NCBI GenBank assembly: GCA_964636545.1
Contig: CAZWSR010000001.1
Location: 102,821 to 166,820 of the forward strand
Source of the DNA: Candidatus Undinarchaeota archaeon
GTDB taxonomy: Archaea > Undinarchaeota > Undinarchaeia > Undinarchaeales > UBA543
Reading direction: 5' to 3'
DNA: 64,000 bases
Shown: piece by piece, positions 8,634 through 62,715 of the stretch
Layout: the number at the start of each line of letters is the position of its first letter
How positions within the stretch are numbered: the first letter of the stretch is position 1
Notes under the pieces: generated by a model
Told to the model about the DNA's origin: nothing
Database searches by the model: none
What the model saw: only the letters and a program-made list of their open reading frames with translations
Position numbers and translations under genes: made by a program

Positions 8634-8693
8634 GGTATCGGCTGTCAGCCCTCAGCAGTCAGGGCCTGATGGCTGAATGCTGACACCTTAACC
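8634..8693. repeat. Palindromic heptamer-repeat element (nnnTCAG / CTGAnnn family), no cargo
   Basis: GGTATCG GCTGTCA GCCCTCA GCAGTCA GGGC CTGATGG CTGAATG CTGACAC CTTAACC; CTGACACCTTAAC (8680-8692) is identical to 62703-62715. Confidence 0.85.
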
Positions 8694-8763
8694 AATAGGG
8701 CAAACCTTTATATACCAAATACACTACTCCAAAGTAGTGACAAACGTCACTGGTGGTTAAAAA

Positions 8764-9609
8764 ATGGTTATGTGGATGCTCATAGCAATACCAATAATTC
8801 TCGTGTTCGGAGGACTAGGACTTATTGTAAAGTCTCCAAAGAATCTTATTCTTGGAAAAGTTTTGTTTGAATTTAAGGAATATGAACGAGGAGTTATCTA
8901 CAGATTCGGTAAATACCATCGTGTTGCAGAACCTGGATGGAAATTTATTATACCAGTTATTGAGAGTTTTATCAAGTACGATCTTCGTACTGAAACAATT
9001 GACATTCCACCACAATCAGTTATCACACGCGACGCAGTTAAATTAAATATTGACGCTATTATTTATCTTAGAGTTGACGATCCAGTAAAAGCAGAACTTT
9101 ATGTTGAAGAAGATTACAGAAAGGCAATTGAAGAGCACGTAAAAGGTCGTATTCGTAACCTTGTCGGAAGCATGGAACTTGATGAACTTTATGGAAAAAT
9201 TGACACAGTTAACAAACAGCTCAGAGAAGATGTTCAGAAACTCGCAATTGAGTGGGGCGTAATGATTGTTAACGTGGAACTTATCTCAGTTGCACCGCCA
9301 CAGCAAATGGTTGATGCAATGCAAGCAGAAGAAATTGCAGAGAGATACAAACGTGCAGAAATGCAGACAGCAGAAACAACCAAGATTAGAATTGGCGCAA
9401 TTGAAGAAGCTGCTGGAAAATTGTCAACTCCTGCTTTGAATTATCTTTACATAAAAGCATTGAAAGATATGGCAGACGGCAGAGCAACAAAGATTGTGTT
9501 CCCAATGGAGCTTACAAAAGCAGTTGAGAAACTTGCTGGTGGGCTTGGTGGAAAAGACAAATCAGATCTTGCAAGCACTGCAGAAAAGCTATTGGAGAGA
9601 ATCAAATAA
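8764..9609 (+). CDS. SPFH/band 7 (stomatin-like) protein
   Basis: EYERGVIYRFG, DLRTETIDIPPQSVITRD, EWGV; N-terminal TM. Confidence 0.92.
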   Translation: MVMWMLIAIPIILVFGGLGLIVKSPKNLILGKVLFEFKEYERGVIYRFGKYHRVAEPGWKFIIPVIESFIKYDLRTETIDIPPQSVITRDAVKLNIDAIIYLRVDDPVKAELYVEEDYRKAIEEHVKGRIRNLVGSMELDELYGKIDTVNKQLREDVQKLAIEWGVMIVNVELISVAPPQQMVDAMQAEEIAERYKRAEMQTAETTKIRIGAIEEAAGKLSTPALNYLYIKALKDMADGRATKIVFPMELTKAVEKLAGGLGGKDKSDLASTAEKLLERIK

Positions 9610-9614
9610 AGTTT

Positions 9615-9686
9615 TTTAGAGTTTAGATTTTGGAATTTAGAATTTAGAGTACTCCAAATTCTAAACTCTTAATTCCAAATTCCATT
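9615..9686. repeat. Palindromic heptamer-repeat element (TTTRGAN family)
   Basis: TTTAGAG TTTAGAT TTTGGAA TTTAGAA TTTAGAG TA CTCCAAA TTCTAAA CTCTTAA TTCCAAA TTCCATT. Confidence 0.9.
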
Positions 9687-9741
9687 CAGAAAATATTAAC
9701 AAAACCCAACACTATTTATAAAAAAACAAACTAGCCCCACT

Positions 9742-10110
9742 GTGAAACAAATTATTGCTGAAACTAAGGAAGATATTTGGAGAATCCCTGCAGACACTAA
9801 TGAGCTTATTGTGGAGTTTCAGTTGTCATTGCAAGGTGCGCATGAGATTTTCAAGAGATGTGGTGAGCTTGAGAGAATTATTTTTAATGGGAAAGTTTAT
9901 GGATTGATGAGTCAAGATGTGAAGGATTATGTTGGAGAAAATTTTCATGTTGAAGTTAGAGGAGAGATTGGGAAAAGGCGGATGGACCCTGTAATTGAGA
10001 AAGAGATTAGAAATAAGTACGAAGGCGGAATGGTTAGTATTGAGCACATTGCAGAAGAATATGGAATTGATTATGATGTTGTGAAGAAGGTTATTGAGGG
10101 AAGATATTAA
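9742..10110 (+). CDS. Hypothetical protein with C-terminal HTH-like segment
   Basis: SIEHIAEEYGIDYDVVKKVI resembles an HTH; GTG start. Confidence 0.6.
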   Translation: MKQIIAETKEDIWRIPADTNELIVEFQLSLQGAHEIFKRCGELERIIFNGKVYGLMSQDVKDYVGENFHVEVRGEIGKRRMDPVIEKEIRNKYEGGMVSIEHIAEEYGIDYDVVKKVIEGRY

Positions 10111-10826
10111 TATTCCTTAAGAAGTTTTTTCAATTTAGAGCTTTTCTTTAGCAACCTGAGTTTTCGTTTAGTATATTTTCCTCTTCTTGCAACTATTTTT
10201 ACAAAATATTGTTTTCCAGCATCTAAAGTAAATGGAGATACTGGATAGAGAAAAGGATCTTCTCCCGTTTCTATTAGAACTTCGATTTGTCTCGCATTTA
10301 GAACACGACCTTTCACAAGAGCTTCTTGTTGTCCCAAATCAACAATATCAACCACAACCTCAAATCCCTTGTCCTCTAAAATTTTTTTGATTATTTTGAC
10401 ATTTTTTGGATCATCAATTTTTCTCCATCGACCATGATGGAAAGTTCCACTAGTTGCTTCATCAGGCCATAATCTTATGTAAACACTTGAGTCATCCTCT
10501 AATTCATCAAGAGCTTCTGAAAAATATTTTTGAAAATAAAGATCATCACTTAAATCATCTTTCTTAGCTATGTGCTCCAGAGCGAAATTGAAGAAGAGAA
10601 TATCTGGCTTGCCTTTTGGAACTTTGAAAGTTTCAATTGTTTTGTTAAAAATAACTATTTGGTTTTGGAGATTCGCCTTTTTCAAGTTATTTTTGGCAAG
10701 CAGCCTATTCTCTAGATTAGGGTCAATGGCATAAATTTTAGCTTTGGGACACCACTTTGCAATTGCTAATACCATTTCACCAGCACCACAACCATAATCA
10801 ACAATTACTTGCTTTCCGTTATGCAT
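10107..10826 (-). CDS. Class I SAM-dependent methyltransferase-like protein
   Basis: VIVDYGCGAG motif I, IYAIDP, FALEH. Confidence 0.8.
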   Translation of the reverse strand: MHNGKQVIVDYGCGAGEMVLAIAKWCPKAKIYAIDPNLENRLLAKNNLKKANLQNQIVIFNKTIETFKVPKGKPDILFFNFALEHIAKKDDLSDDLYFQKYFSEALDELEDDSSVYIRLWPDEATSGTFHHGRWRKIDDPKNVKIIKKILEDKGFEVVVDIVDLGQQEALVKGRVLNARQIEVLIETGEDPFLYPVSPFTLDAGKQYFVKIVARRGKYTKRKLRLLKKSSKLKKLLKEY

Positions 10827-10952
10827 ATTGATTATTAGATAAAACAGATATTTATAATGTGTGTTCGTTTCGTGACACTAACCTTAAATACGATTACAAA
10901 CTTTTAGATTGCACTATGAATAACAACTCTACGCGGAGGCATCTTTTCCTAC

Positions 10953-11189
10953 ATGAAGAAGGTGGTAGCCTGTGGCCTCGGTATCAAAGTAGAAGTGGTA
11001 GCGGAACCAGTCGGAAGCCTTTGCAGTAGAGAGGAATCTAGTTCTAATAAAATTGGAAGACCATCAAAACTAGATCAAAGAGATCGTGATGAAATTCTTA
11101 GAATAAAACCATTTTACTCAATTCGACAATTAGCCCGAATTTTCGAGGTTTCTCGGAGCAGTATAATGAGGGTGTTGAAAAATGGGTGA
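10953..11189 (+). CDS. Small Hin/resolvase-type HTH protein
   Basis: GRPSKL...YSIRQLARIFEVSRSSIMRVL. Confidence 0.7.
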   Translation: MKKVVACGLGIKVEVVAEPVGSLCSREESSSNKIGRPSKLDQRDRDEILRIKPFYSIRQLARIFEVSRSSIMRVLKNG

Positions 11190-11322: not shown

Positions 11323-11407
11323 AGTAGTTAGTGAGATTTCTTGAAACAAAAGTTTAAAACGAAGTTGAATACTATTGAGAGTTATAATGGTATATAGGAA
11401 ATGAAAA

Positions 11408-12255: not shown

Positions 12256-14175
12256 ATGAAAGAGCTGATTCAGCATGTTGACTATGTGCAATGGCAAGCA
12301 AAGAAAAAGACCAAACTAGCTGGGGAACTGAAGGATGATCAGAAAAAAGGTCGGATGGAAGAGTGTTTGTTTGCTCGTTTTGCAACTGAAGTTGAGGATG
12401 AAGGTCATGAAAAGGAAGTTGCAAAGAAAGCAGTTGCTGATTTAATTAAGATTTCTGACCAGCTTAAGACAAAAAATGTTGTATTTTATCCATATGTTCA
12501 CTTGCTTTATGGTTCAAAGCCGTCAAAACCAAGAACTGCACTTGAAATTCAGAATTTAGTGAAAGAAGGACTTGAGAAAAAGGGTTTGAAAGTTAAGCTA
12601 AGTCCGTTTGGATGGTATAAAGAATTTGAAATGAAGTGTAAAGGCCATCCATTAAGTGAGTGGTCTAGGATTATTCGCGCTGGAGAAGGTGAGGGCGGAG
12701 AAGGAGAGCAGGAAGTTTCAGATGCAGTTAAAAAAGAAGAGACTTTGAAATCAAAATTCTATATTCTTGAACCAACTGGAAAGAAGCACGAGATTAAAAT
12801 TGATAATGGAAAGATTAAGGGATATGATTTTGGAAAATATCCAAAACTTGAGAAACTGTGTTTGTATGAATTAGCAAAGAACAGAACTGTTGACAAAGCA
12901 CCACCACATATTGAATTAATGAAGAAACTGGAAATTGCTGATTATGAACCAGGCAGTGATCCAGGAAACTTGAGATTTTATCCAAATGGACGATTGATTA
13001 AGGGCTTGCTTGAAGATTATACCACCAGAGAAGTTATTGATTATGGTGGTATGGAAGTTGAAGCACCAATAATGTATGATTATGAGCATCCGGTTTTGAA
13101 AAAATACTTGAATCGTTTCCCAGCAAGGCAATATATTGTCAAAACCCCGAATAAAGAATGTTTCTTGAGGTTTTCAGCTTGCTTTGGACAATTTTTAATG
13201 GCACATGATGCAACTATTTCGTATAAGAACATGCCAATGCGAATTTACGAGATGACTAAGTACAGTTTCAGGACTGAAAAGCGCGGGGAATTGGCAGGTT
13301 TAAGGCGATTACGAGCATTTACCATGCCAGATGTTCATGCACTGTGCACTGATGTTAAGAGTGCGAGTGAGGAGCTTTTAGTTAGGTTTAATCTTGCTGA
13401 AAGGGTACTGAAAGGCTATGGTTTTGATAAGAAAACTGATTTGGAATTTGCAATGCGTTGGGTTAAGGACTTTGAAGATGAACATCCTGAAGTAATTAAA
13501 GATCTTGCAAAGAAATGGGGAAGGCCAATGCTTGTTGAAGTTTGGGACAAACGCTTTTTCTATTTTGTTTTGAAATATGAAATTAATTTTGTTGATGCTT
13601 TAGATAAGGCAGCAACTTTGACAACTGATCAGATTGATGTCGAGAATGGAGAAACTTATGATTTGAATTATATTGGCGAAGATGGAAAAGAGCACAGGCC
13701 AGTTATTTTGCACATGTCACCAGGTGGAGCTATTGAGCGAGCGATTTATGCTTTACTTGAAAAAGCGTACATGGATCAGCAGAAAGGAAAGAAAGTTATT
13801 TTGCCACTTTGGTTGTCTCCAACACAGGTTCGTATTTGCGCTGTTTCAGATTCTCATGTTAAGGCATGTTTGAAAATTGCTGATGAACTGGATAAAGCAA
13901 CTATTCGTGTTGATGTTGATGACAGAGGAGAAAGTGTTGGCAAGAAGATTTCTGGAAGTGAGAAAGAGTGGGTGCCTTATACTTTAGTTATTGGAGACAA
14001 GGAACTGAAAGCAAAGAAGATTCCTGTTAGAGTTCGGGAAGAAGGAAAAGTTGTTGACATGAGTTTGGATGAGCTTGTTAAAGTGATTCAGAAAGAAACT
14101 GAGGGAATGCCATTTAAGAAATTGAGTTTGCCAAGAGAATTGTCAAAAAGACCTAAGTTTACTGGTGGGAATTAA
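12256..14175 (+). CDS. thrS: Threonine-tRNA ligase, archaeal type with N-terminal editing domain
   Basis: YPYVHL, PFGWYK, CKGHPLSE, LRFSACFGQF, LRRLRAFTMPD, LPLWLSPTQV; GAGGTG SD upstream. Confidence 0.97.
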   Translation: MKELIQHVDYVQWQAKKKTKLAGELKDDQKKGRMEECLFARFATEVEDEGHEKEVAKKAVADLIKISDQLKTKNVVFYPYVHLLYGSKPSKPRTALEIQNLVKEGLEKKGLKVKLSPFGWYKEFEMKCKGHPLSEWSRIIRAGEGEGGEGEQEVSDAVKKEETLKSKFYILEPTGKKHEIKIDNGKIKGYDFGKYPKLEKLCLYELAKNRTVDKAPPHIELMKKLEIADYEPGSDPGNLRFYPNGRLIKGLLEDYTTREVIDYGGMEVEAPIMYDYEHPVLKKYLNRFPARQYIVKTPNKECFLRFSACFGQFLMAHDATISYKNMPMRIYEMTKYSFRTEKRGELAGLRRLRAFTMPDVHALCTDVKSASEELLVRFNLAERVLKGYGFDKKTDLEFAMRWVKDFEDEHPEVIKDLAKKWGRPMLVEVWDKRFFYFVLKYEINFVDALDKAATLTTDQIDVENGETYDLNYIGEDGKEHRPVILHMSPGGAIERAIYALLEKAYMDQQKGKKVILPLWLSPTQVRICAVSDSHVKACLKIADELDKATIRVDVDDRGESVGKKISGSEKEWVPYTLVIGDKELKAKKIPVRVREEGKVVDMSLDELVKVIQKETEGMPFKKLSLPRELSKRPKFTGGN

Positions 14176-16226
14176 AAGTTATTTTTCTTTTTAACATATA
14201 ATAAAGCAATTACTCCACCAACCATTATAAAACCAATAACAGCAGAGAATGTTCCACCGCGGCTCCCAGTAACCAATCCAGACATTCCTGAAAGCTCACC
14301 AATATTCACTTCAGGGTCAGCTTCTTTTAAAATATCTTCAATTGGCTCAATATTCAGCTGAGGAATTGTTCCAGGTGAAGTTTCGCTGAGTAATTGGATT
14401 TTTGAAAGTAATGCTTGCCTTGTTTCTTCAACATCTGCACTGATTTCATCTTTCCGGTTGTTTACTTTGAGAATTTCTGTTTTTTCATTGTCATTTGGAT
14501 CAGTTGCTCTGACAATTATTTCCTGTTCTCCTGTTTTTAGTGGAATTATTGTCAGAAATCCGCCATTTTTATCAATTAAAACATCCTCGTCAACTCCAGA
14601 AATGTGCATTGTTGCATCAGGATCTGTTATTCCAGCAACAACCATCATGTCTTGTGAAACTTTTGATTCAAAACCAGGTTGGACAATCTCTAATTTCAAT
14701 TCTAAATCTCTTGCAGTGTCGCTAACTGAACGCTGATTAGTGTCCTCGTTTCCTGCTGTATCTTCTGCTCTAACAATGTAATAATAATCTTGTCTGTGTA
14801 TTAATTCAGTGTCTGTAAAGCTGTTCAGTGTAGTGATTTTGTGAGGAACTGAAAAGTCGAATGTGCTAATTGTTGAACGGTAAATATTGTATTGCTTGAA
14901 ATCTGAATCTTCAGAAGCTGGCCAAGTTAAAGTGATGCTTGAGTCAGGATTTGCAACTGCAGATAAGTCAGAAACGGCTTGAGGAGCTGAGGAATCTGGT
15001 GCGAGTTTAACTATATTTGAAATTTCAGCTTCGTTTCCTGCTTCATCAACTGCAGCAATTGCGTAATATGTTTCACTTTGTGGAAAATGTGTGTAAGTTG
15101 TGATTTCGCCTGTGATAATAATTGGATCTGTGTCTAAGTTTCGGGTTGACGAAGCATAAACATGATAATAATCAGCACCAGCAACTTCAGTCCATTCTAA
15201 AACAATTTTTCCACCTTTTTGACTGGAGGCAGTTAATTCAGTTTCTAATGGTGGATCTTCATCTGAAACTGCACTTAGAATTTGAGAAGGATCTCCGATA
15301 TTTCCTGAAGTATCAACAGCAGCGATTGCATAGAAATATTCTCTACCATCTTTTGCTTTTTCATCAGTGTAAGTTAGCTCACGAGTTGCTTCATCTGGGT
15401 CATCAAGGTCAATTTCATCAGAAAGTGATTTTAATTTGTAAATATTGTATTCCTGCACTTCAACATTGTCTTCAGAAGCTTGCCAGCGAAGTTTGATGTC
15501 TCCACCTTGAATTGGAGATACAACCAAACCAGTTACTGAGCTTGGTGCTGTTTCATCTTTTAAATCAATACACCCAATATTTGAGATTGGTGCAATATTT
15601 CCTGCTAAATCAACTGCAGAAATTCCATAACAGTAGGTTTGGCCGTCTCTGGCTGTTGAATCTTCATACTCAGTTTGTTTAGTTGTGAAAATGTCAGCGA
15701 GTTGCTTGTTTTCGTCAGTGAATTCTGAAATACTTCTGTAAATATTGTATTGTAGTAATCCAATTTCTGGAGAAACTTCATCCCACTCAAGATTTACTCT
15801 GTCTTTGAGTTCTGCATCCATTTCAGTTGAATCTGGTTTGATGTAGTAAGCTGAAATATCTGAAGTGCGTTTGTAAATTGGAGTAAATTCAACTTCAATA
15901 CTTGCTGATTCGCCATTTGCCATTTGAACTGAACCATCTTTTACATCTGAACTAATTGTAAAACTGCCTTTGTAGAAACCATTGTTGATATCAGTGAGCT
16001 TGATAGTGGTTTTTTCAATATCGTTTATTGAGATTTTTGCATTTATTTCAGTACAGCAAGTGATGCTGTTGGATGCTAGAATGTAAACTGTTGAGCCATC
16101 AGTGAAATAATCAGATTGGATTGTGTATTCTGAATCGCGGTAGGTTTTAACTTCAGATGATGCAAGCGCAGGGCTGGATAAGATTATTAGAAATAATAGT
16201 GTAAATATTACTGTTCTCCCCCACAT
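14172..16226 (-). CDS. Cell-surface fibronectin type III repeat protein
   Basis: Signal peptide; about four LxW...YNIY...YxIxAVDxxGN repeats; Ig-like domain; C-terminal TM anchor. Confidence 0.88.
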   Translation of the reverse strand: MWGRTVIFTLLFLIILSSPALASSEVKTYRDSEYTIQSDYFTDGSTVYILASNSITCCTEINAKISINDIEKTTIKLTDINNGFYKGSFTISSDVKDGSVQMANGESASIEVEFTPIYKRTSDISAYYIKPDSTEMDAELKDRVNLEWDEVSPEIGLLQYNIYRSISEFTDENKQLADIFTTKQTEYEDSTARDGQTYCYGISAVDLAGNIAPISNIGCIDLKDETAPSSVTGLVVSPIQGGDIKLRWQASEDNVEVQEYNIYKLKSLSDEIDLDDPDEATRELTYTDEKAKDGREYFYAIAAVDTSGNIGDPSQILSAVSDEDPPLETELTASSQKGGKIVLEWTEVAGADYYHVYASSTRNLDTDPIIITGEITTYTHFPQSETYYAIAAVDEAGNEAEISNIVKLAPDSSAPQAVSDLSAVANPDSSITLTWPASEDSDFKQYNIYRSTISTFDFSVPHKITTLNSFTDTELIHRQDYYYIVRAEDTAGNEDTNQRSVSDTARDLELKLEIVQPGFESKVSQDMMVVAGITDPDATMHISGVDEDVLIDKNGGFLTIIPLKTGEQEIIVRATDPNDNEKTEILKVNNRKDEISADVEETRQALLSKIQLLSETSPGTIPQLNIEPIEDILKEADPEVNIGELSGMSGLVTGSRGGTFSAVIGFIMVGGVIALLYVKKKNNF

Positions 16227-17331: not shown

Positions 17332-18153
17332 ATGAACACAAAAATCCTTTACTGGACCAAGAATCCAGCAGCTCAGAATATTATGAAACAGTTTAATGAG
17401 CTTGGAGTAGATGTAGAAGTTTTTGAAACAGAGAAGGATTTTTTGTATTTGACTGATGAGGATATTAACGGGGCGCAGGGGCGCAGGGGCGCAGGGGCTC
17501 AGACTGATTTATTGATATTTCCAAGCACGCACAAGAGCGCTGCAAATAAAAAGTCATTAACTATTCACGCTACAGGTAATTTTGGGAATGCTGATTATGG
17601 TGGAGAGCCAAAGAAATTGAATCCAACAAGTTCTGAGGCGATTGCAATAGGACTACGCAGTATGGCGAATCAGGCACTAGGTAGTAGGCAGGGGGCAGTA
17701 GGTTTTGAAGTTTGTTTGGAAGTAACACATCATGGACCGACAATTAAAACTCCGTTAGTTTTTATTGAAATTGGTTCAACTGAAGAAGAATGGGGAAATG
17801 TGGAAGCTGGGAAGGTTATTGCAAATGCTATTAAGGATATTATTGAATACCTCAAACCCCCAACCCCAAACCCCAAACCTTTCACAAACTACATCGGCTT
17901 CGGCGGTCCTCACTATGCACCAAGCTTTACAAAAAAAATTATTGAAAATGAGAATATTGCAATTGGCCATATTTTGCCAAAATATCAGCAAGATAATGTT
18001 ACTAAAGATATTATTCAGCAAATGTTAGATGGAAGTAATGCAAAGAAAGCTGTTTTTGATTGGGATGGAATGAATTCTGAGCAGAGGAATAAGGCTGTTG
18101 GGATTTTAGATGAGTTGGGGATTGAGTGGTGTAAGACAAAGGAATTAGTTTAA
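17332..18153 (+). CDS. dtdA: D-aminoacyl-tRNA deacylase (archaeal DTD2 type) with three repeat-derived insertions
   Basis: STHKS, LTIHATGN, EVTHHGPT, FIEIGSTEEEW, GFGGPHY, GHILPKY. Confidence 0.93.
   Translation: MNTKILYWTKNPAAQNIMKQFNELGVDVEVFETEKDFLYLTDEDINGAQGRRGAGAQTDLLIFPSTHKSAANKKSLTIHATGNFGNADYGGEPKKLNPTSSEAIAIGLRSMANQALGSRQGAVGFEVCLEVTHHGPTIKTPLVFIEIGSTEEEWGNVEAGKVIANAIKDIIEYLKPPTPNPKPFTNYIGFGGPHYAPSFTKKIIENENIAIGHILPKYQQDNVTKDIIQQMLDGSNAKKAVFDWDGMNSEQRNKAVGILDELGIEWCKTKELV
17470..17504 (+). repeat. In-frame octamer tract in dtdA
   Basis: GGGGCGCA x3 + GGGGCTCA GAC, encoding GAQGRRGAGAQ. Confidence 0.9.
17672..17703 (+). repeat. In-frame heptamer tract in dtdA
   Basis: AGGCACT AGGTAGT AGGCAGG GGGCAGT AGG. 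Confidence 0.75.
17850..17880 (+). repeat. In-frame heptamer tract in dtdA
   Basis: CCTCAAA CCCCCAA CCCCAAA CCCCAAA, encoding LKPPTPNPKP. Confidence 0.75.
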
Positions 18154-23070: not shown

Positions 23071-25788
23071 TTATTCCCCCTGTGGTGGCTTTTCTGGCTG
23101 TTCAACAGGAACTTCTTGGGGACTGTCAAGATTTGGCACATCAAGGTTTTCAATTGGTGTTTCAGTAGGTGCTTCAGGTTCTAGATTGGGTAATTCAAGT
23201 GGAATGTCTTCAAGCATTGGCTCATTTGATTCTTCCACTGCCTCCTGCCCACTGCCTTCTGCCTCGTCTTCTATAATTTCTTCCATCTTTGGCTCTTCAA
23301 CTTCTTTTTCTGCAATCTCGTCATTCGTTCCAATTTCAATTCCAACAAGTTTGGAAGTGCCATCTGATTGCATTGAAACACCGAATAGGCGCTCTGCATT
23401 TCTGACAACAGAATTATTGTGACTGATAATTAGAAGTTGGGATTTTTTTGCTCGCTCTTGCATTAAAGTGACGAATCGCATTGAGTTTGCTTGGTCAAGA
23501 GCAGCATCAACTTCGTCAAGAACATAAAATGGGGATGGTTTGTAGCTCTGGAGAGCAATTAAGAATGCTAATGCAGTCATTGTTTTTTCACCACCAGACA
23601 AGGAATCAATACTGAGAATCTTTTTTCCAGCTGGTTTTGCTTCAACAAACAATCCGCTTGCTAGTGGATCTTCTGGATCTTCAATTATTAAACGAGCTTC
23701 TCCCTCAGGTGAAAGTTTTGGGAAAACTTGTGAAAATTCTTCTCCGACCTTGTTGAAAACTTCAAAGAAAACTTCCTTTTTACGTTTTTCAATATCTTCA
23801 ATAAAGTCAATAATGGAATTGCGCTCACTCTTGAGAGTATTGAATTTTTCTTCAAATACTTGGAATTCTTTCATGTGCTGACCATACAGTTCAATTGCTT
23901 TCATATTCACTGGCTCAAGTTTTATGACATTATTGTTAACTTTGATTAAGCGCTCATCCATTTTTTCAATGTCGCCTTCTTCAAAGTCCATATCCTTGAA
24001 CTTCTCCATGTTCAGGCGAATGTCAGTGAGTTTTGCATCAATTTGCGCTTTTTCAATTCTAATATCAGAAATTTTGCGGGTTGCGGATTCTTTTTGAAGG
24101 CGAACTTGATCACATTTTTCTCTGAGCTTGTCAATTTCCAAATCAAGAACTTCAGAATCTCTCTGCATAGATTCCATTGTGTTTCCAACTTCCTTGTCCT
24201 TTTTCAAATAATCTTCATATTCTTTTTTGAGTGCCTCGTTACTGAGTGAAAGATCTTCAATTTCATCAAGGAGCTTGTCTCTGGTTTTGACATATTCCTC
24301 AATTTCTGAACCTGAACCTTTCTTTCCTCTTTTCTGAGATCCGCCACTAATTGATCCAGCTCTTTCTGCAATATCACCAAGAAGAGAAACCATTCTGATT
24401 TTACCAATGTGTGATTTTACTTTGTCAATATCTTCAACAATGTGAGTATTTCCAAAAGCGTATTGGAAGGCTTTATCGAATTTGCTGTCGTATTTCACAA
24501 GATTAAGTGCAAGTCCGATAATTCCAGCCCCATTTGTTTCCCTGATTTCTTTTGGTGGTTGGATTTTGTTGAGCGGGAGGAAAGTTGCGCGACCCATGCT
24601 GTTTTCTCTAAGGAAATTAACGCACTTGATTGCAGTATCGTCACTGTCAACAATCACAAAATGACTTCGTTTTCCAAGAGAATTTTCAATTGCACTTGCA
24701 TATTTTGCATCGTGAGTCATTAATTCAGAAACTGTTCCATGAATTCCTTCAATTTCTGATTTGAGATTGGAAATAAATCGTGCAGGAGTTGAACTGCGGG
24801 CTTGCAGGTTTGAGACCATCCCATCTATTCTTGAAATTTCAGATTGTTTGCTCTCTATTTTGCTTTCGTTAATTGAAATTCGGCCTTTAATGCGCTCTGC
24901 TTCGAATTTGACACCGACTTGCTCTGTGCTACCTTCGTGAATGAGCTTGGTATCAATTCCTTTTTTGCGTGATTGTTTTTCAGTGAGCTTGTTGTTGATA
25001 TCTGAAAATTCAGATGCAAATTTCTGCTCTTCTGTTTGTTCTAAACTTATTTTTTCCTGAATTTTGGATTCAATTACTTCTGCGTTTTTTAATTTAGTAA
25101 ATGCTAATTGTCCTTCAAGCCCAGCTGCCTCATCTTTGAGTGCTTTGTATTTTTCAGCATCTTCTTTTTCTTTCCTTAGTGATTCTACATGCTTTTTGCG
25201 CTCAGACATCACAATTACAATTTCTTTTATGTGAACTTCAACTGCACCAAGATCTTTCTGTGCTTTGTCTCGCTTTTCATCGTATTCTGAAATTCCACAG
25301 ATTTCATCAAGAACTTGTCTTCGGCCAAATGGGTCCATTTCAATGAAGTTCGTGACATCTCCTTGCAAGACAATGTTGTGACCACTGGCCTTGAACATGT
25401 GAGAAGAAAGAAGGTCAACCATTTGCTGTTTTGTGCATTTTTGGTTATTGACTTTGTAAGACATTGTACCGTTTCTGGTGAGACGGCGAGTTACGCGGAC
25501 TTCGTCATTTTCAAAAGGTAGTTCTCGCTTTTTGTTATCTAAAACTAGAGTGACTTCCATAGCAGTGGCTGGTGGATTACCTTTGCCCCCGTTGTAGATG
25601 AGATGCGCAAGCCGTTCTGCCCTCATTGAGCGTGCAGATGAACGCCCAAGAACAAAACAGATGGAGTCACAAATGTTTGACTTTCCAGAACCATTTGGTC
25701 CAACGAATGCTGTTAGGCCTTCGGAAAGCGGGATAACGACCTTCTTGTTGAAGGATTTGAAGCCCTGCATCTCTAAGCTCTTAATCAC
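23071..25788 (-). CDS. smc: SMC protein with short arms and an acidic C-terminal tail
   Basis: GFKSF, GPNGSGKSN, VLQGD, hinge GRATFLPL, LSGGEK, LDEVDAALD, ISH. Confidence 0.95.
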   Translation of the reverse strand: MIKSLEMQGFKSFNKKVVIPLSEGLTAFVGPNGSGKSNICDSICFVLGRSSARSMRAERLAHLIYNGGKGNPPATAMEVTLVLDNKKRELPFENDEVRVTRRLTRNGTMSYKVNNQKCTKQQMVDLLSSHMFKASGHNIVLQGDVTNFIEMDPFGRRQVLDEICGISEYDEKRDKAQKDLGAVEVHIKEIVIVMSERKKHVESLRKEKEDAEKYKALKDEAAGLEGQLAFTKLKNAEVIESKIQEKISLEQTEEQKFASEFSDINNKLTEKQSRKKGIDTKLIHEGSTEQVGVKFEAERIKGRISINESKIESKQSEISRIDGMVSNLQARSSTPARFISNLKSEIEGIHGTVSELMTHDAKYASAIENSLGKRSHFVIVDSDDTAIKCVNFLRENSMGRATFLPLNKIQPPKEIRETNGAGIIGLALNLVKYDSKFDKAFQYAFGNTHIVEDIDKVKSHIGKIRMVSLLGDIAERAGSISGGSQKRGKKGSGSEIEEYVKTRDKLLDEIEDLSLSNEALKKEYEDYLKKDKEVGNTMESMQRDSEVLDLEIDKLREKCDQVRLQKESATRKISDIRIEKAQIDAKLTDIRLNMEKFKDMDFEEGDIEKMDERLIKVNNNVIKLEPVNMKAIELYGQHMKEFQVFEEKFNTLKSERNSIIDFIEDIEKRKKEVFFEVFNKVGEEFSQVFPKLSPEGEARLIIEDPEDPLASGLFVEAKPAGKKILSIDSLSGGEKTMTALAFLIALQSYKPSPFYVLDEVDAALDQANSMRFVTLMQERAKKSQLLIISHNNSVVRNAERLFGVSMQSDGTSKLVGIEIGTNDEIAEKEVEEPKMEEIIEDEAEGSGQEAVEESNEPMLEDIPLELPNLEPEAPTETPIENLDVPNLDSPQEVPVEQPEKPPQGE
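23236..23263 (-). repeat. In-frame heptamer tract in the SMC tail
   Basis: Coding strand GGCAGAA GGCAGTG GGCAGGA GGCAGTG. Confidence 0.65.
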
Positions 25789-25831: not shown

Positions 25832-25902
25832 AATGGAGTTTGGAGTTTAGAATTTAGAGTTTAGAGTAACTCCAAATTCCAAAATCTAAATTCTAAATTC
25901 TA
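25832..25902. repeat. Palindromic heptamer-repeat element (TTTRGAN family) overlapping the aspS stop
   Basis: AATGGAG TTTGGAG TTTAGAA TTTAGAG TTTAGAG TAA CTCCAAA TTCCAAA ATCTAAA TTCTAAA TTCTA. Confidence 0.9.
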
Positions 25903-32746: not shown

Positions 32747-32748
32747 CT

Positions 32749-32782
32749 CATCAGCTATCGGCTAACAGCCAACAGCTATCAA
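32749..32782 (+). repeat. Single heptamer arm immediately 3' of tRNA-iMet
   Basis: CATCAG CTATCGG CTAACAG CCAACAG CTATCAA. Confidence 0.8.
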
Positions 32783-32789
32783 ACTTGTT

Positions 32790-50657: not shown

Positions 50658-51517
50658 TCTGGTTGGTGTTTGCGCTCGGAGCTGCACTATTTACTGGGCT
50701 TTCAGATATTCTTGCTAAGAAATTGCTGAAGACAGATGATTTGTATATAGTTGCATTGGGGAAGAATTTATTTGCTCTCCCATTCCTAGTCCCAATATTG
50801 TTTTTTATTACAATTCCTCCGCTAGGACCTGTTTTTTGGAAAACACTATTGATTCTCGCACCACTTGATATTATTGCAATTATATTATATCTGAAGGGGA
50901 TACAGAGTTCACCAATTGCGCTAACTGTACCTTTCCTTTCATTTAGTCCAGTGTTTCTGATTTTAACTGGGTTTTTGATATTAGGAGAGGTTCCAACACT
51001 TCTAGGAGCTGGCGGAATCCTGTTTGTTGTTTCAGGAGCTTATGTTTTGAATATTAGGAGTTGGAGGAAGGGTTTGTTTGCTCCGTTTAAGGCGATTTTT
51101 CATGAGAAAGGGTCGGTTTTGTTTCTAGGGATTGCCCTTATTTATTCTGTAACTGCTGTTCTTGGGAAGAAATTGATATTGCATACAAGCACAATGTTTT
51201 TTGCTGGATTTTATGCACCACTTATAGCATTGATGTTGGTGCCGATTGCACTTAAAAAATCAAACAATATCAAGAAGATTTTCAAAAAACCGTTTTGGTT
51301 GATTGTGCTTGGGGCGTTGTTAGCTGGAACACTGATTTTTCATATTATTGCCATTAGTATGGTGGAAGCAGTGTATATGATTTCTATTAAGAGGACGAGT
51401 ATTATTATTTCAACTGTGCTGGCATATTTGATATATAAAGAAGATCATGTTGCTGAGCATTTGGTTGGAGCTGGATTGATGTTTTTGGGTGTTGTTGTTA
51501 TTTTGTTGTTAGGTTAA
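50654..51517 (+). CDS. EamA/DMT family transporter
   Basis: About ten TM segments, two EamA repeats, LILGE, IKRTS. Confidence 0.9.
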   Translation: MIWLVFALGAALFTGLSDILAKKLLKTDDLYIVALGKNLFALPFLVPILFFITIPPLGPVFWKTLLILAPLDIIAIILYLKGIQSSPIALTVPFLSFSPVFLILTGFLILGEVPTLLGAGGILFVVSGAYVLNIRSWRKGLFAPFKAIFHEKGSVLFLGIALIYSVTAVLGKKLILHTSTMFFAGFYAPLIALMLVPIALKKSNNIKKIFKKPFWLIVLGALLAGTLIFHIIAISMVEAVYMISIKRTSIIISTVLAYLIYKEDHVAEHLVGAGLMFLGVVVILLLG

Positions 51518-52569: not shown

Positions 52570-53928
52570 TTACTTTTTCCGCTCATGCAATTTCATATGC
52601 CCTTTTTGGATTCCTTCAGTTGTAATTGCTTTTAATGCAGCGAAGTTTTGTGCAAGGCCTGCTGCTGCCATTACTTGAGCAAGTTCTTGAGCTGATTTTA
52701 CACCCAAGATTTTGAGATTTACTTGAGCTTGTGGGTGTTTTGTTGAACCGCCGACTGTGGCGACTGCTAGTGGTAATTCAATAGAGGCCTTTAAGTCATT
52801 GTTTCCTGTTAGTTCGTAGTGAGTTAATGGTTTGTAGGATGGAGTGTGGATTGTAGAGTGTAGAGTGTGGACTTCGCCTCCACGCCGCCCCGGCGCACCT
52901 GCGCCCCCTGAAACACTAGCATAGGCATGCGCTCCTGCTTCTACTGCTCGCCAGTCATTGCCAGTTGCTATGCAGATTGCTGAAATTGCATTCATTATTC
53001 CCTTGTTGTGAGTTGCTGCGCGGTATGGATCTACTTCTGCAACTTGATTTGCTTTGATGATGAGGTTGATTGTTTGTTCACTGAGGAGTTCTTTTTTGAA
53101 AACACACTCTGCTCTTGCTAATCGGCGGTCTGCTAAGTTGGAAACTATCTTTAGAACGGCTTTTCCACCAAGTTCTTCCAGTTTTGGAGCAATTGCTTCA
53201 ACCATTGTATTGACTATGTTGGCACCCATTGCATCTTTGCAGTCTACGTATAGGTGGATTCTGATGATTTGGGCAGTGGGCAGTGGGCAGTGGGTTGTAG
53301 GTGAGGATTCGTTATTTTCAGGCGCCTCTACGGCGCCCCGGCGCCCCGGATCCACAGGTAAAATATCAACAGAGAGATCTTTTGCACCGCCACCTAAGTT
53401 AATGAGTGTTGGGTTTTTTGAATTTGCTATTGTGAGAAGTTCCTGCTTCATATTTAGAATGTGTTGCACTACGTTCTCTTGCTCCTGGTTCAGGGTAGTG
53501 GGTAGTGGGCAGTGGGCAGTAGGAGAAGATTTGTTATTTTCGTTCTGAGCCCCTGAGCCCCTGAGCCCCGGCGCCCCGAATAAATGTATTTGCCCAATCA
53601 TTATTGAATCATCTGCTGAAGTTTTGAATCCACCACATTCGCGAGCAAGTTTTGCAGAGTTTGATGCAGCTGCAACTACTGAAGGTTCTTCAAGAACCAT
53701 TGGAATAATGTAATCTTTGTTATTTATTAGGAAATTTACAGCTACCCCGATTGGTAGTGAGAAATTTCCAATAACATTTTCAATTAATTTTTCTGAAAAA
53801 TCAGTTACACTAGGAAAATTTTTCAGTGTTTCTGCTTCTGCATCAGTTAATTCAGCAAATTCTTTAATAAAATTAAGTCGCTCTTCAGGTGAGCGTTCGT
53901 AAAATTTTGAAACTCTTGAAGTTTTCAT
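52570..53928 (-). CDS. mvaA: HMG-CoA reductase, class II, with three repeat-derived insertions
   Basis: ENVIG, EEPSVVAAAS, DAMGAN, THNKGIMN, GNDWRA, GIQKGHMKLH. Confidence 0.95.
   Translation of the reverse strand: MKTSRVSKFYERSPEERLNFIKEFAELTDAEAETLKNFPSVTDFSEKLIENVIGNFSLPIGVAVNFLINNKDYIIPMVLEEPSVVAAASNSAKLARECGGFKTSADDSIMIGQIHLFGAPGLRGSGAQNENNKSSPTAHCPLPTTLNQEQENVVQHILNMKQELLTIANSKNPTLINLGGGAKDLSVDILPVDPGRRGAVEAPENNESSPTTHCPLPTAQIIRIHLYVDCKDAMGANIVNTMVEAIAPKLEELGGKAVLKIVSNLADRRLARAECVFKKELLSEQTINLIIKANQVAEVDPYRAATHNKGIMNAISAICIATGNDWRAVEAGAHAYASVSGGAGAPGRRGGEVHTLHSTIHTPSYKPLTHYELTGNNDLKASIELPLAVATVGGSTKHPQAQVNLKILGVKSAQELAQVMAAAGLAQNFAALKAITTEGIQKGHMKLHERKK
52840..52908 (-). repeat. In-frame octamer + heptamer insert 3 in HMG-CoA reductase
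   Basis: + strand TGGAGTG TGGATTG TAGAGTG TAGAGTG TGGACTT ... CGGCGCAC CTGCGCCC. Confidence 0.85.
53271..53349 (-). repeat. In-frame octamer + heptamer insert 2 in HMG-CoA reductase
   Basis: + strand GGGCAGT x3 GGGTTGT, spacer, CGGCGCCC x2. Confidence 0.9.
53493..53578 (-). repeat. In-frame octamer + heptamer insert 1 in HMG-CoA reductase
   Basis: + strand GGGTAGT x2 GGGCAGT x2, spacer, CTGAGCCC x3 CGGCGCCC. Confidence 0.9.
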
Positions 53929-55520: not shown

Positions 55521-55561
55521 GTCTGAGCCCCTGGGCCCCGGCGCCCCGGTGCCCCTGAACC
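55521..55561 (-). repeat. Intergenic octamer arm
   Basis: GT CTGAGCCC CTGGGCCC CGGCGCCC CGGTGCCC CTGAACC. Confidence 0.88.
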
Positions 55562-60258: not shown

Positions 60259-60812
60259 TGGATAAATTATACGAAGCAATCAAAGTTTTGCGAGAAGGTG
60301 GAGTTATTGTTTATCCTACTGAAACTGTTTATGGACTAGGCGCTAATATTTTTAATGAGGATGCTGTGAAGAAAGTTTATGCTTTGAAAGGAAGAAAATT
60401 TGACAAGCCGCTTTCAGTTGCAATGCGAAGGGAGGATATGAATGAATATGGTGTTGTGAGTGATACGCAGTTGATTGATTTAGAATTGAGTTTGCCAGGA
60501 CCAGTTACAATTGTTGCAAGAAAGAAAAAGATTCCAGATTGGATTACAAATACTGATTTTGTTGGGATGAGAGTGCCAGAGCACCCAGATGCTTATGAAT
60601 TAGTTTCAAGGTTTGGGCCAATAACAAGTACTTCTGCTAATAAAGCTGGAGGGAAAAGTCCGATTTCAGTTGATGAAATTCCAAAAAGTATTTTGGACAA
60701 AGTTGATTATGTTATTGATGATGGGGAAACAAAATATAAACAAGGAAGTACAGTGATTAAAGTTACTGATAGTATTGAAATATTGCGGGAGGGAGCATGG
60801 AAGAAGAAGTAA
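60258..60812 (+). CDS. tsaC: L-threonylcarbamoyladenylate synthase (YrdC domain only)
   Basis: YPTETVYGL, KGR...KPL, PGPVT, STSAN, STV. Confidence 0.93.
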   Translation: MDKLYEAIKVLREGGVIVYPTETVYGLGANIFNEDAVKKVYALKGRKFDKPLSVAMRREDMNEYGVVSDTQLIDLELSLPGPVTIVARKKKIPDWITNTDFVGMRVPEHPDAYELVSRFGPITSTSANKAGGKSPISVDEIPKSILDKVDYVIDDGETKYKQGSTVIKVTDSIEILREGAWKKK

Positions 60813-61693
60813 TTCAAAAATACAAACAAGCTGGAGAAATATTGAAGAAAGCACAGGAGCTTGCGAAAGAAATTGTTAAGCCAGGTGCTGGAATTCAAGA
60901 AATCACTGATAAAATTGAAGCAAAGATTTTGAAAGATGGTGGAAAGATTGGATTTCCACTAAATGTTTCAATAAATGAAAACGCTGCACACTTTACTCCG
61001 GACACGAATTGTGATTTGAAATTTGAAAAAGAGGATTTAGTGAAGATTGATATTGGGGTGCATGTTGACGGTTATATTGCTGACTCCGCTATTACACTGA
61101 GTATGAATAATTGTGCTGAGCATAAGAATTTGATAAAGGCTGCTGAAGCTGGTCTGAAAGCTGCTTTGGAAATTGCAAAGCCAGGAGTTACACTAGGTGA
61201 ACTTGGAACTGCTATTGAAACTGCAATTACTGAATTTGATGTTGTGCCAATTGCGAATTTGACTGGTCATTTGCTTGAGCAGAACAATTTGCATGCTGGA
61301 CTTTCAATTCCGAATATCAAAAATGAGTCAGATATTACATTAGAAGAAGGAATTGCAATTGCTATTGAGCCATTTTCAACAACTGGAGCTGGAATGGTTA
61401 CTGATGCAAAAGAAGTTTACATTTACGAATATTTGCAAGACAAACCAACTAGGAATCGGGAAGCAAGAAAGATTTTGGAAATGTCAAAAAACGAATTTGG
61501 TGGGCTTCCGTTTGCAATTAGATGGGTTGAAAAGGAATTTGGAAAACTGAAAGCAAGAATGGCAATAAATGAGCTTGCAAAGAGCAAGGCACTTTATCAA
61601 TATCCGGTTTTGAAGGAAAAAACTGGTGCATTGGTTGCGCAGGCGGAACATACAGTATTAATACTGGATACGCCTATTGTCACAACGAAATAA
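60797..61693 (+). CDS. map: Type II methionine aminopeptidase
   Basis: AAHFTP, DIGVHVDGYIAD, NLTGH, AIEPF, QAEHT. Confidence 0.96.
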   Translation: MEEEVIQKYKQAGEILKKAQELAKEIVKPGAGIQEITDKIEAKILKDGGKIGFPLNVSINENAAHFTPDTNCDLKFEKEDLVKIDIGVHVDGYIADSAITLSMNNCAEHKNLIKAAEAGLKAALEIAKPGVTLGELGTAIETAITEFDVVPIANLTGHLLEQNNLHAGLSIPNIKNESDITLEEGIAIAIEPFSTTGAGMVTDAKEVYIYEYLQDKPTRNREARKILEMSKNEFGGLPFAIRWVEKEFGKLKARMAINELAKSKALYQYPVLKEKTGALVAQAEHTVLILDTPIVTTK

Positions 61694-62196
61694 TGGCAAA
61701 ACGAGTTTGGTTTAGCAAAGAGAAATTCAAACTAATGTTTGATGATCAAGTAAACGAATATACAAGTTTAGGAGGCAATTTTTTCTATGGTTTCTTATTT
61801 TTCATTACTTTTGCACTAGGTTACACTGCAGAAATGCCTGAGATGATGGATGCTGCGCGCGTTCTTCTGATTGCAGGAATCTTGTTTACTATTGTCGGTT
61901 TTGGATTGAAATACGTTGTTGGAAGAACAAGACCAAATAAAGTTAGTTTAAGATGGGCAAGTGCAATGGAAAGAATGAATGATGCATCGTTCCCAAGCAT
62001 ACATTCTGGACGAGCAGTTATAATTGCATATACTTTTGGGCATTTATTGCCAAGTTTTGGAAAGCTTATTTTCTGGATAATAATGTTGGGGGTTCCATTA
62101 ACAAGAGTTTATTTGAAAAAACACTTTTGGAGCGACATTATTGCAGGGGTGTTATTTGGATTTTTGATTGCTTACGGCGTGAGATTGGTGATATAG
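61693..62196 (+). CDS. PAP2-family membrane phosphatase
   Basis: K...RTRP, SFPSIH, TRVYLKKHFWSD. Confidence 0.9.
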   Translation: MAKRVWFSKEKFKLMFDDQVNEYTSLGGNFFYGFLFFITFALGYTAEMPEMMDAARVLLIAGILFTIVGFGLKYVVGRTRPNKVSLRWASAMERMNDASFPSIHSGRAVIIAYTFGHLLPSFGKLIFWIIMLGVPLTRVYLKKHFWSDIIAGVLFGFLIAYGVRLVI

Positions 62197-62715
62197 GTTA
62201 AGGTATCAGCAGTCGGCCCTCAGCCCTCGGGTCAGAATAACTGGAAGACTGCATTATACATCTGGCATTTTCTTAATAAAACTGTATGTCATTTTTGCAA
62301 GACACTCAATTTCTTCTTTTAAGACAAGATGTGTTTCTTTTGGAATATATCCTAAATCACGAGCTAAAAGCAGATGATAATCAAGTTCTTTTATAGAATG
62401 ATAAGAATAAAATAAATATCTTCTGGCTGCAGGAGTTGTGTTTTGACCACAACCTTCAACAATATTTGTAGGAATTGATGCACTTGACCGTCTTATTTGA
62501 TCAATCAACCGATATCTCTCTTTGGAAGGAAATGTATCCACGAGTTTATCTAATTTTAATACAAGATTATGAGCTTTTTTCCAAATAATTAATTCTGTAT
62601 AATCTCTTGTCATAAATTTATCATGCCGATATCCTCTTTATAAAAATTTGTAAACTCGCTTGAGTTGGTGGCTATTGTCACCTGACGGCTGAGGGCTGAT
62701 ACCTGACACCTTAAC
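62196..62715. mobile_element. Putative element: four-helix-bundle gene bracketed by inverted heptamer-repeat arms
   Basis: Left arm 62196-62235 and right arm 62682-62715 are inverted (27/34 by hand); perfect terminal GTTAAGGT/ACCTTAAC; mobility is inferred only. Confidence 0.55.
62254..62613 (-). CDS. Four-helix-bundle protein (23S rRNA IVS protein / Avd-like family)
   Basis: LIIWKKA...FPSKERYRLIDQIRRSSASIPTNIVEG...ELDYHLLLARDLGY. Confidence 0.92.
   Translation of the reverse strand: MTRDYTELIIWKKAHNLVLKLDKLVDTFPSKERYRLIDQIRRSSASIPTNIVEGCGQNTTPAARRYLFYSYHSIKELDYHLLLARDLGYIPKETHLVLKEEIECLAKMTYSFIKKMPDV

Follow-up and report, generated by a model that had tools for sequence, protein, structure and literature searches.

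We describe a dispersed repeat system in a window of 64,000 nucleotides (positions 102821-166820 of contig C1) from the draft genome of a Candidatus Undinarchaeota archaeon, labeled G000 here. The repeats are arrays of degenerate 7-mers or 8-mers. One inverted pair of arrays encloses a gene for a four-helix-bundle protein of the family PF05635/TIGR02436, also named "23S rRNA intervening sequence protein" or "S23 ribosomal protein". The evidence supports well that a single class of element, occurring in both Archaea and Bacteria, is represented in the window by one copy with cargo and about a dozen without. It is equally well supported that this class comprises inverted pairs (hairpins), single arms, mixed pairs and arrays inside genes, with the PF05635 gene in the center when it is present. 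We can safely conclude that the same class includes the cyanobacterial heptamer repeats and those rRNA intervening sequences (IVSs) that bear an open reading frame (ORF). Among the genomes sampled, it is only in carriers of the gene that arrays are common.

Repeat arrays and the cargo gene in G000

G000 is a draft of 840,427 bases in 39 contigs, is 82.8% complete and has a GC content of about 37%. At least 13 loci with degenerate 7-mer or 8-mer arrays were found in the window with Tandem Repeats Finder and by direct reading, as the original prediction had claimed. For periods 7 and 8 the program returned 9615-9684, 17470-17502, 17849-17879, 23237-23264, 25836-25902, 52842-52868, 53270-53294, 53331-53349, 53493-53520, 53545-53577 and 55527-55555. 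Direct reading added 8634-8693, 32748-32784 and the arms 62197-62235 and 62677-62715. All four predicted forms were confirmed: a cargo-bearing element, cargo-less palindromes, single arms and in-frame insertions. The elements of the window are listed below.

8634-8693 (no strand): cargo-less palindrome, nnnTCAG/CTGAnnn family, with CACCTTAACC at its end; found by sequence reading
9612-9686 (no strand): cargo-less palindrome of the TTTRGAR/YTCYAAA family; found by Tandem Repeats Finder and reading
17470-17502 (+): in-frame GGGGCKCA octamer array in dtdA, 33 nt or 11 codons, peptide NGAQGRRGAGAQ
17849-17879 (+): in-frame ACCYCAA heptamer array in dtdA, peptide LKPPTPNPKP
23235-23264 (-): in-frame array of ACTGCCT-type heptamers in smc, within the acidic tail at the C-terminus
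25832-25902 (no strand): cargo-less TTTRGAR palindrome that abuts the aspS stop and separates it from the smc start
32748-32784 (+): single array of CAGCTAN units directly past the 3' end of tRNA-Met(CAT)
52841-52908 (-): mvaA in-frame composite insert 3, GGGGCNCN octamers, then CACACTC heptamers
53267-53350 (-): mvaA in-frame composite insert 2, octamers, a AAAATAACGAAT-type spacer, then ACTGCCC heptamers
53493-53577 (-): mvaA in-frame composite insert 1, octamers, a spacer, then ACTRCCC heptamers
55521-55555 (+): intergenic single octamer array (GCCCCNGN) between thiolase and HMG-CoA-synthase-like genes
62197-62235 (no strand): cassette arm 3' of the cargo gene, GGTTAAGGT followed by nnnTCRG units
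62254-62613 (-): cargo gene, 119-aa four-helix-bundle protein, PF05635/TIGR02436
62634-62666 (-): conserved stretch between the 5' arm and the ATG, with the palindrome AACTC-N5-GAGTT, an A-rich run and TTTATAAA
62677-62715 (no strand): cassette arm 5' of the cargo gene, CTGAnnn units ending in CACCTTAAC

The two arms of the cassette (locus L004) are complementary to each other, with a score of 45 against a shuffle maximum of 25. The arm at 62197 starts directly past the stop codon of a PAP2 gene and has no fold when taken alone (z +0.76). The cassette lies between this PAP2 gene and a small ORF, among protein genes. An Rfam gathering scan of the window returned two tRNAs only, so the cassette is outside rRNA. 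The three cargo-less palindromes form hairpins by themselves. The one at 8634, which lies 26 nt past the stop codon of a zf-AN1 gene and upstream of the TATA-like box of an SPFH gene, has a DNA fold of -16.7 kcal/mol (z -4.3; 0/200 shuffles as good), and its terminal motif is common to 12 other loci. The palindrome at 9612 lies directly past the stop of the SPFH/Band 7 gene (the ORF ends at 9609 and the array starts at 9615, 6 nt after). It folds with z -4.1 (0/200 shuffles as good) and is 1 of 12 TTTRGAR-type palindromes read from G000. The palindrome at 25832 folds with z -3.5. The single arm at 32748 forms a small hairpin only (z -3.5), and the fold of the array at 55521 is not significant (z -1.8). 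Among the in-frame arrays, that of smc falls past the Pfam match to SMC_N (last matched residue 812 of 905), and the three mvaA inserts add about 22-27 residues each. No Pfam family was found for neighboring small ORFs.

The cargo protein matches PF05635 with an E-value of 8.5e-32 and 110 bits (cut-off 33.8) and TIGR02436 with 104.8 bits (cut-off 24). Its AlphaFold2 model has four helices and a pLDDT of 95.3. In Foldseek the closest structures were XCC0516 (2gsc, TM-score 0.84-0.93) and BT_0352 (2rld, TM-score 0.77-0.88), and chains A-E are deposited for each of them. Next came Avd (4dwl, TM-score 0.77-0.85, sequence identity 10%), along with a ribonucleoprotein of a diversity-generating retroelement (DGR). 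The predicted kinship with Avd holds for the fold. By the NCBI model for Avd (NF033474) the protein is not itself an Avd, with a score of 22.7 bits against the cut-off of 80.

G000 has four PF05635 genes. All of them lie between inverted arrays, each of another family: nnnTCAG, ATCNGGK, a GTTATTC type and a CTAGGGGN octamer.

The repeat system is genome-wide and not confined to the window. With a score of at least 36, 97 period-7 arrays were counted in G000, versus 0, 2 and 0 in three third-order Markov simulations. The same simulations gave 3-4 period-8 arrays (36 in G000) and 5-15 period-14 arrays (60 in G000). After merging and removal of low-complexity tracts there were 141 arrays: 77 intergenic, 51 within ORFs of at least 110 aa and 13 at ORF edges. 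By the same crude ORF call, about 86% of G000 is coding, yet more than half of the arrays are intergenic. The 141 arrays make up 117 elements, namely 30 palindromes, 8 mixed or direct pairs and 79 single arrays. All palindromes but one (29/30) are intergenic, and 42 of the 79 single arrays are inside ORFs. A genome-wide scan near stop codons and four-helix-bundle genes had been proposed, and it gave the following: 37 elements are within 40 nt of a stop codon versus 14 for a start codon (proximity counts, in which one element may count twice), and four of the four genes are between arrays.

A typical array consists of about 4.5 units of degenerate 7-mers, sometimes 8-mers, and spans about 32 nt. 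The copy-number mode is 4.5 units both in G000 (50/207 arrays) and in G042, an acidobacterium used as bacterial comparison (46/148 arrays), with a sharp fall above 5. Such a set length would not be expected if simple slippage were the source. The predicted fixed core with variable positions was also seen. In G000, 91% of the differences between units fall at the two most variable positions versus 74% expected if they were even, and the concentration is above expectation in 39/45 arrays; in G042 the values are 88% and 75%. When arrays were clustered by their consensus heptamer (with rotation, reverse complement and one mismatch permitted), almost all of them were chained into one cluster.

Distant loci share exact ends, as predicted: 13 of the 16 genomic occurrences of GGTTAAGGT in G000 are the end of an nnnTCAG palindrome. 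In the window this end is at 8682-8693 and at 62197-62205 / 62707-62715. In several nnnTCAG palindromes the GGTTAAGGT end precedes a start codon by about 15-25 nt and has a AAAAGGACAAA-like stretch after it, an arrangement suggestive of a fixed relation between these palindromes and the 5' ends of genes. Inside ORFs of G000 only TTTGGAR variants were seen of the TTTAGAA-type units. Because TTTAGAA-type units contain stop codons, only stop-free units would persist inside genes; the arrays that persist there come in multiples of three bases and form additional loops. This agrees with the accessible text of PMC4679880, which places heptamer repeats also in ORFs, in stop-free orientation, and calls their origin unknown.

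Two further places in G000 stand out. The longest array (C6:2360-2449) has 12.9 units of alternating AGGTTTG/GGGTTTG, with period 14 and 94% matches. It is far longer than the usual 4.5 units and is directly followed by an octamer array. At C1:48462-48526 and 50836-50908, which lie upstream of the window and about 2.3 kb from each other, two TTTRGAR palindromes carry an identical four-unit arm in opposite orientation and bracket the stretch between them.

Association of arrays with the gene across genomes and domains

The gene is present in 8/41 related archaeal genomes (G000 counted) and in 0/24 of those scored only as "same domain". In Acidobacteriota, 34/61 genomes have a match to it, or 32/59 when two unpublished genomes (G067 and G092), on which nothing else here depends, are left out. 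We counted period-7 arrays with a score of at least 36, with low-complexity tracts removed, in sampled DNA of genomes with and without the gene. The 18 gene-positive genomes had 237 arrays in 2,075 kb, with at least one array in 13/18. The 23 gene-negative genomes had 5 arrays in 1,031 kb, with at least one array in 4/23. The counts are given below as arrays/kb.

Gene-positive: G000 86/840, G001 2/75, G002 2/66, G005 7/100, G007 3/58, G010 12/67
Gene-positive: G042 97/400 (0 in a simulation)
Gene-positive: G041 1/100, G043 5/100, G044 12/77, G015 0/52, G008 2/38
Gene-positive: G077 3/20, G078 0/20, G050 5/20, G061 0/2, G084 0/20, G086 0/20
Gene-negative: G003 1/115, G004 2/113, G006 1/106; ten other archaea 0/400; ten Acidobacteriota 1/297

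Without G000 and G042, the gene-positive samples still had 54 arrays in 835 kb. The gene-positive Acidobacteriota sample amounts to 102 kb only.

Dispersed arrays were also compared with cassette arms, by alignment to whole arms; the Tandem Repeats Finder consensus missed several cassettes. At scores 16, 18 and 20, respectively, 46%, 37% and 32% of the dispersed arrays of G042 (n=95) matched arms of its own cassettes. For foreign arm sets of equal size, the mean share was 14%, 7% and 3% and the maximum 29%, 19% and 11% (100 draws). In G000, 15% of the dispersed arrays matched own arms versus 2% for foreign arms at score 16. Dispersed arrays are thus closer to own than to foreign cassette arms, with a limit that is taken up below.

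By eye, inverted arrays can be seen at the majority of 21 full-length archaeal loci. The wider scan used a six-sequence query alignment and one genome per species, and covered the best 80 of 475 relatives. The query biased these 80 loci to close relatives, mostly Acidobacteriota. The other groups among them are Chloroflexota, Planctomycetota, Gemmatimonadota, the verrucomicrobial Lacunisphaera, Gammaproteobacteria, a Binatus and two archaeal records. In the arm test, the upstream flank was compared with the reverse complement of the downstream flank and had to beat all 100 shuffles. Complementarity passed at 91/101 loci, versus 9/101 in the direct-orientation control. Aligned arms match themselves at shift 7 at a median of 75% of positions (101 loci). 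The ten loci that failed include L012, L013, L009 and L021, at which arrays are visible but short. Many acidobacterial loci share arm families, which spoiled a mismatched-pair control, and shuffles and the direct-orientation control were used. In G042 there are 11 gene matches, most of them with inverted heptamer arrays by eye and mostly with a family of their own; G077 has 22 matches. The predicted link between arrays and four-helix-bundle genes thus holds across genomes and in both domains.

The protein has relatives in 24 plasmid records. Of the 21 records with a named organism, 20 are cyanobacterial, judged by the first word of that name; 3 more are unnamed. Six plasmid records were read, and those of Nostoc punctiforme, Calothrix and Stanieria have inverted heptamer arms. 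On the Azospirillum lipoferum plasmid AZO_p2 (NC_016586.1, 14001-15130; L220), an unannotated PF05635 ORF lies between inverted GAGGACR heptamer arms. We read the surroundings as a 23S rRNA gene (the PLSDB record has no feature there), and the arms extend an rRNA helix. The position in an apparent 23S rRNA gene together with the heptamer arms makes this copy a true IVS. The Pseudanabaena galeata plasmid NZ_CP112875.1 (45871-47012; L217) has the four-helix-bundle gene between cas6 and cas4, flanked by direct AAAAGCT/AAAAGCC arrays of about 10-17 units on each side.

The cassettes of the two domains differ in front of the gene. Most of the 21 archaeal cassettes read have AACTC-N4-5-GAGTT, an A-rich run and TTTATAAA before the ATG. 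The stretch at 62634-62666 and its archaeal equivalents may be a promoter with a small operator-like palindrome. Bacterial cassettes have about 10-40 nt with a ribosome-binding site between arm and ATG, and must therefore be transcribed from outside. At L001, L008, L017 and L016 the PF05635 frame passes the conserved C-terminus into the 3' arm, so that the last residues and the stop codon come from repeat units.

Turnover between species and stability within

Turnover sites were compared between congeners that share the flanking genes. G001 and G002 are two congeners of G000, and G005, G007 and G003 served as sources of more distant mvaA orthologues. G001:C8 and G002:C7 run collinear with the window, though inverted, and share about 70-85% nucleotide identity with it. 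The states of the sites are as follows.

Site A, window 62196-62715: G000, cassette in an nnnTCAG palindrome; G001, arms abutting, no cargo, different units; G002, short CCTAGCnC array
Site B, window ~63059-63070: G000, remnant of ~2.5 units; G001, cassette; G002, cassette
Site C, G000 C3:72313-72352: G000, clean empty; G001 and G002, whole element with GGCTTGT arms
8634 palindrome: G000, present; G001, absent; G002, absent
25832 palindrome: G000, present; G001, unrelated ~530-nt insert; G002, empty
32748 array: G000, present; G001, absent, with tRNA and downstream gene conserved; G002, no anchor found
55521 array: G000, present; G001, present with variant units; G002, absent
dtdA octamers: G000, present; G001, absent; G002, absent
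dtdA heptamers: G000, present; G001, absent; G002, present with variant units
smc array: G000, present; G001, absent; G002, absent at the aligned position
mvaA insert 1: G000, composite; G001, octamer array only; G002 and the three more distant orthologues (G005, G007, G003), none
mvaA insert 2: G000, composite; absent in all five orthologues compared
mvaA insert 3: G000, composite; G001, octamers and AACTACC heptamer; G002, G005, G007 and G003, none

Between congeners, arrays and cassettes have been gained, lost and lengthened, and at a given site arrays also grow step by step. Filled and empty sites in close relatives, which had been expected, were found for cassettes, palindromes, single arms and in-frame inserts. 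Site A ties the forms together as one system, as had been proposed, since it has a cassette in G000, an empty palindrome of the same family in G001 and an array of another family in G002. The comparison with orthologues also bears out, for mvaA, dtdA and smc, that proteins gain loops from arrays. The mvaA inserts proved to be composites of octamer array, spacer and heptamer array, and their states in G001 and G000 indicate that arrays are added beside arrays and that the family at a given site changes. New arrays tend to arise beside old ones.

Two observations belong beside these sites. The insert of G001:C8 at the place orthologous to 25832 (L117:18124-18636) has a 170-aa ORF that matches no Pfam family. 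At C7:42860-42975 of G000, a TTTRGAR palindrome is flanked on both sides by the 12-nt TGGCTCAGCAGC, which the orthologous place in G001 has once. This repeat is the sole candidate for a target-site duplication that was seen.

Near-identical DNA to the window is present in contigs of 20 public runs from 16 studies, labeled seawater, marine, hydrothermal-vent or plain metagenome. No RNA run was among the public runs listed with the window stretch. In contigs of four runs from four studies, the mvaA inserts, the array at 55521 and the cassette showed 0-1 differences and no gaps. Unit-number variation, which the original prediction had proposed to look for, was thus absent within the species in these contigs. 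Public-run contigs break at the array at 55521.

Besides the repeats, the window contains the chromatin protein MC1, a family-B DNA polymerase, tRNA genes, DtdA and an archaeal-type ThrRS editing domain, which identify G000 as a small archaeal genome. Next to a 684-aa protein with fn3 and glucodextranase-B domains (14172-16226, -) is a 114-aa "putative phage metallopeptidase" (PF18894; 16252-16596, -). The surroundings of both are otherwise housekeeping genes.

Possible mechanism, competing explanations and related systems

We favor, with a confidence a little short of even, the reading that the PF05635 protein is a trans-acting partner of its own repeat family and sits on the hairpin as a pentamer, with one protomer per unit. 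The protein would form a pentamer like its solved relatives. The pentamer would bind the array hairpin, held in single-stranded DNA or RNA, with about one protomer on each repeat unit, and host replication or repair enzymes might then be steered to copy the arrays into new sites. Each gene would serve its own repeat family, as RAYT genes serve REPINs, without a recognizable nuclease. The mode of about 4.5 units, the five-chain crystals and the five-protomer grip of Avd point to this stoichiometry. The accessible text of a bioRxiv preprint (10.1101/2023.10.23.563531) describes Avd as a pentameric barrel "similar to S23 ribosomal proteins", in which one RNA stem-loop is contacted by each of the five protomers via flipped-out bases. 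The original prediction had also supposed that no reverse transcriptase or transposase was at hand. No reverse transcriptase match was found among the window ORFs, and no match to RVT_1, Y1_Tnp (PF01797) or the TnpB zinc ribbon was found in G000, which at 83% complete does not prove their absence.

Several findings weigh against a trans-acting partner. The periodicity of mismatch pairs in the arms is weak (16.0% at distances that are multiples of 7 versus 13.1% at random). A test for selection on the arms at the RNA level gave no signal, as G-U mismatches showed no strand bias (117 sense versus 127 antisense). At score 16, the arms of the four resident cassettes leave about 85% of G000 arrays unmatched. 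No cassette was found for the most abundant families, TTTRGAR, ACTRCCY and GGGGCNCN, in the assembled 83% of G000. The proteins of L004 and L008 are 62% identical and their arms differ (nnnTCAG versus GGCGTTR), which would be explained no less well by movement of a cassette among palindromes already present. The Nostoc PCC 7120 plasmid copy has a 3' array only, and the arrays on both sides of the Pseudanabaena copy are direct, not inverted. The association itself has limits. The positive totals are dominated by G000 and G042, 5/18 gene-positive samples have no array, and some positive samples are contigs chosen for holding the gene, which adds at most 2 arrays per cassette. The sampled stretches are small, genomes that are related do not count as independent, and the gene may have gone unseen where a genome is incomplete. 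Tracts are fixed within the species, no consistent target-site duplication was found at the filled and empty sites compared, and copies of one family differ unit by unit, unlike the near-identical copies of fresh transposition.

Alternatively, the protein could be a passenger. The hairpins would be made by slippage, template switching or another enzyme. The cassette, a small selfish or hitch-hiking gene, would home into their loops, as it does into helix loops of 23S rRNA, with a read-through transcript that is processed at the stem. The protein would then take no part in producing repeats. This is the main rival explanation, which we consider somewhat unlikely. Site A favors it, as the cassette there lies exactly in the loop of a palindrome that is present empty in G001; at site C, however, the whole element is present in G001 and G002, arms included, and cleanly absent from G000. 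Closely related proteins in different arm families and the many G000 arrays that match no resident cassette arm are also consistent with a passenger, but dispersed arrays are nearer to the arms of their own cassettes than to foreign ones. Bacterial cassettes are read from outside, whereas archaeal cassettes carry the conserved promoter-like stretch inside their arms. The gene-negative genomes are nearly array-free in the limited samples (5 in 1,031 kb over 23 genomes), which argues against a passenger since a host-made target should exist without it. In its favor, the Azospirillum arms extend an rRNA helix, and for Coxiella the accessible text of PMC4990558 reports that RNase III cuts the IVS stem and doubts production of the protein in vivo.

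A host function of the arrays is, in our judgment, quite unlikely. Here the arrays would be cis-elements such as 3' stabilizers, terminators, 5'-UTR hairpins or binding sites, and PF05635 proteins would be regulators or RNA chaperones. The differences between species would reflect ordinary slippage turnover of regulatory hairpins, not mobility. The intergenic position of nearly all palindromes, the excess near stop codons and the nnnTCAG palindromes at a set distance upstream of start codons with their conserved GGTTAAGGT end would suit such a role, as would the stability of tracts within the species. Regulatory roles of heptamer repeats are proposed in the accessible text of a Nostoc preprint (10.1101/2022.06.06.494920) and of PMC4679880. 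However, the 51 of 141 arrays within ORFs, essential enzymes included, cannot be terminators there. Filled and empty sites between congeners with the same flanking genes, the switch of families at one site, and a set length of about 4.5 units in many families go beyond the needs of a single regulator or speak against this role.

Assembly or binning error and low-complexity noise can be dismissed: the draft is fragmented into 39 contigs and public-run contigs break at 55521, but arrays are enriched over simulations, the mvaA inserts, 55521 and the cassette differ at 0-1 places in long contigs of four independent runs, and the same architecture is found in finished plasmids of named strains.

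The trans-acting partner can be extended to a more specific role, which we regard as unlikely. PF05635/TIGR02436 would be the specificity-and-ruler subunit of an unrecognized route that makes and spreads repeats without a transposase or reverse transcriptase. The pentamer would hold five 7-nt hairpin units, and host polymerases would reiterate and copy them, ORFs included.

Compared with known systems, the closest likeness is to the 23S IVSs of the Leptospira, Coxiella and Xanthomonas type, in which a PF05635 "S23p" ORF lies within terminal inverted repeats that form a stem; the Azospirillum plasmid copy, in rRNA and with inverted heptamer arms, extends this likeness. According to the accessible text of PMC4990558, the Coxiella IVS has tandem GACAGAT heptamers before the S23p ORF, whose copy number varies among strains, and a 28-bp terminal stem that is cut by RNase III; the same text notes heptamers for Coxiella only and no link to dispersed repeats. 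In contrast to these IVSs, the window cassette is located between protein genes and not in rRNA, has its own promoter-like stretch and is accompanied by more than 100 cargo-less arrays, some of them inside protein genes.

The second likeness is to the short tandemly repeated repetitive (STRR) sequences, described in 1990, and other direct heptamer repeats of Cyanobacteria, Beggiatoaceae and Bacteroidetes. Most plasmid records with relatives of the window protein are cyanobacterial. Since the layout is shared with 23S IVSs and cyanobacterial plasmid genes, the dispersed arrays look like an archaeal counterpart of STRR sequences. The heptamer repeats, too, are dispersed and mostly intergenic, with 2-6 units and several families (accessible text of PMC4679880). 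A text search of that paper, with its supplementary tables outside the search, found no "helix bundle", "S23", "intervening sequence" or "archaea". The host here differs in being an archaeon with a genome of about 1 Mb.

Repetitive extragenic palindromic (REP) sequences, their paired form (REPINs) and the REP-associated tyrosine transposases (RAYTs) provide a working analogy (accessible text of PMC3116915). Both systems have a low-copy gene flanked by its own inverted repeats, many cargo-less palindromic copies dispersed between genes and several gene-repeat families per genome, as with the 11 paralogues of G042, most of which have distinct arm families. RAYTs are HUH/Y1 nucleases, whereas the protein here is a 119-aa helical bundle and G000 has no Y1_Tnp match. 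The repeats here are degenerate tandem units rather than one conserved palindrome, and arrays are also located inside genes. The likeness to Avd consists of the fold and of its pentamer gripping an RNA stem-loop with all five protomers (accessible text of 10.1101/2023.10.23.563531). Besides the low score and identity given above, the system differs from DGRs in that no reverse transcriptase was found in G000 and no template/variable repeat pair is present. A miniature inverted-repeat transposable element (MITE) would have target-site duplications and near-identical copies; here no duplication was seen at the filled and empty sites compared, the direct repeat at C7:42860-42975 is a possible one, and copies of one family differ unit by unit.

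What the association means

Heptamer repeats, IVSs, the protein fold and its kinship with Avd are separately known. Our literature search did not cover most subscription papers or older work on STRR sequences and IVSs, so that priority is not excluded. It found no paper on a general link between gene and arrays, bar the Coxiella case. Within the same limits, no paper was found on a cross-genome association, on archaeal occurrence or on in-frame inserts with filled and empty sites.

The present analysis ties heptamer repeats, ORF-bearing IVSs and the four-helix-bundle family together, physically and across genomes, in both domains. To our knowledge, Avd is the only understood member of this very large family. 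The link makes the function of the protein family directly testable, and the same tests bear on the origin of the repeats. It also explains why genomes of this kind assemble poorly at these tracts. The inserts in mvaA, dtdA and smc provide a concrete route from repeat insertion to extra loops in conserved enzymes. If the ruler role of the pentamer is true, one mechanism would account for STRR sequences, the heptamers of Beggiatoaceae and Bacteroidetes and ORF-bearing IVSs, and it would steadily supply both domains with new protein loops.

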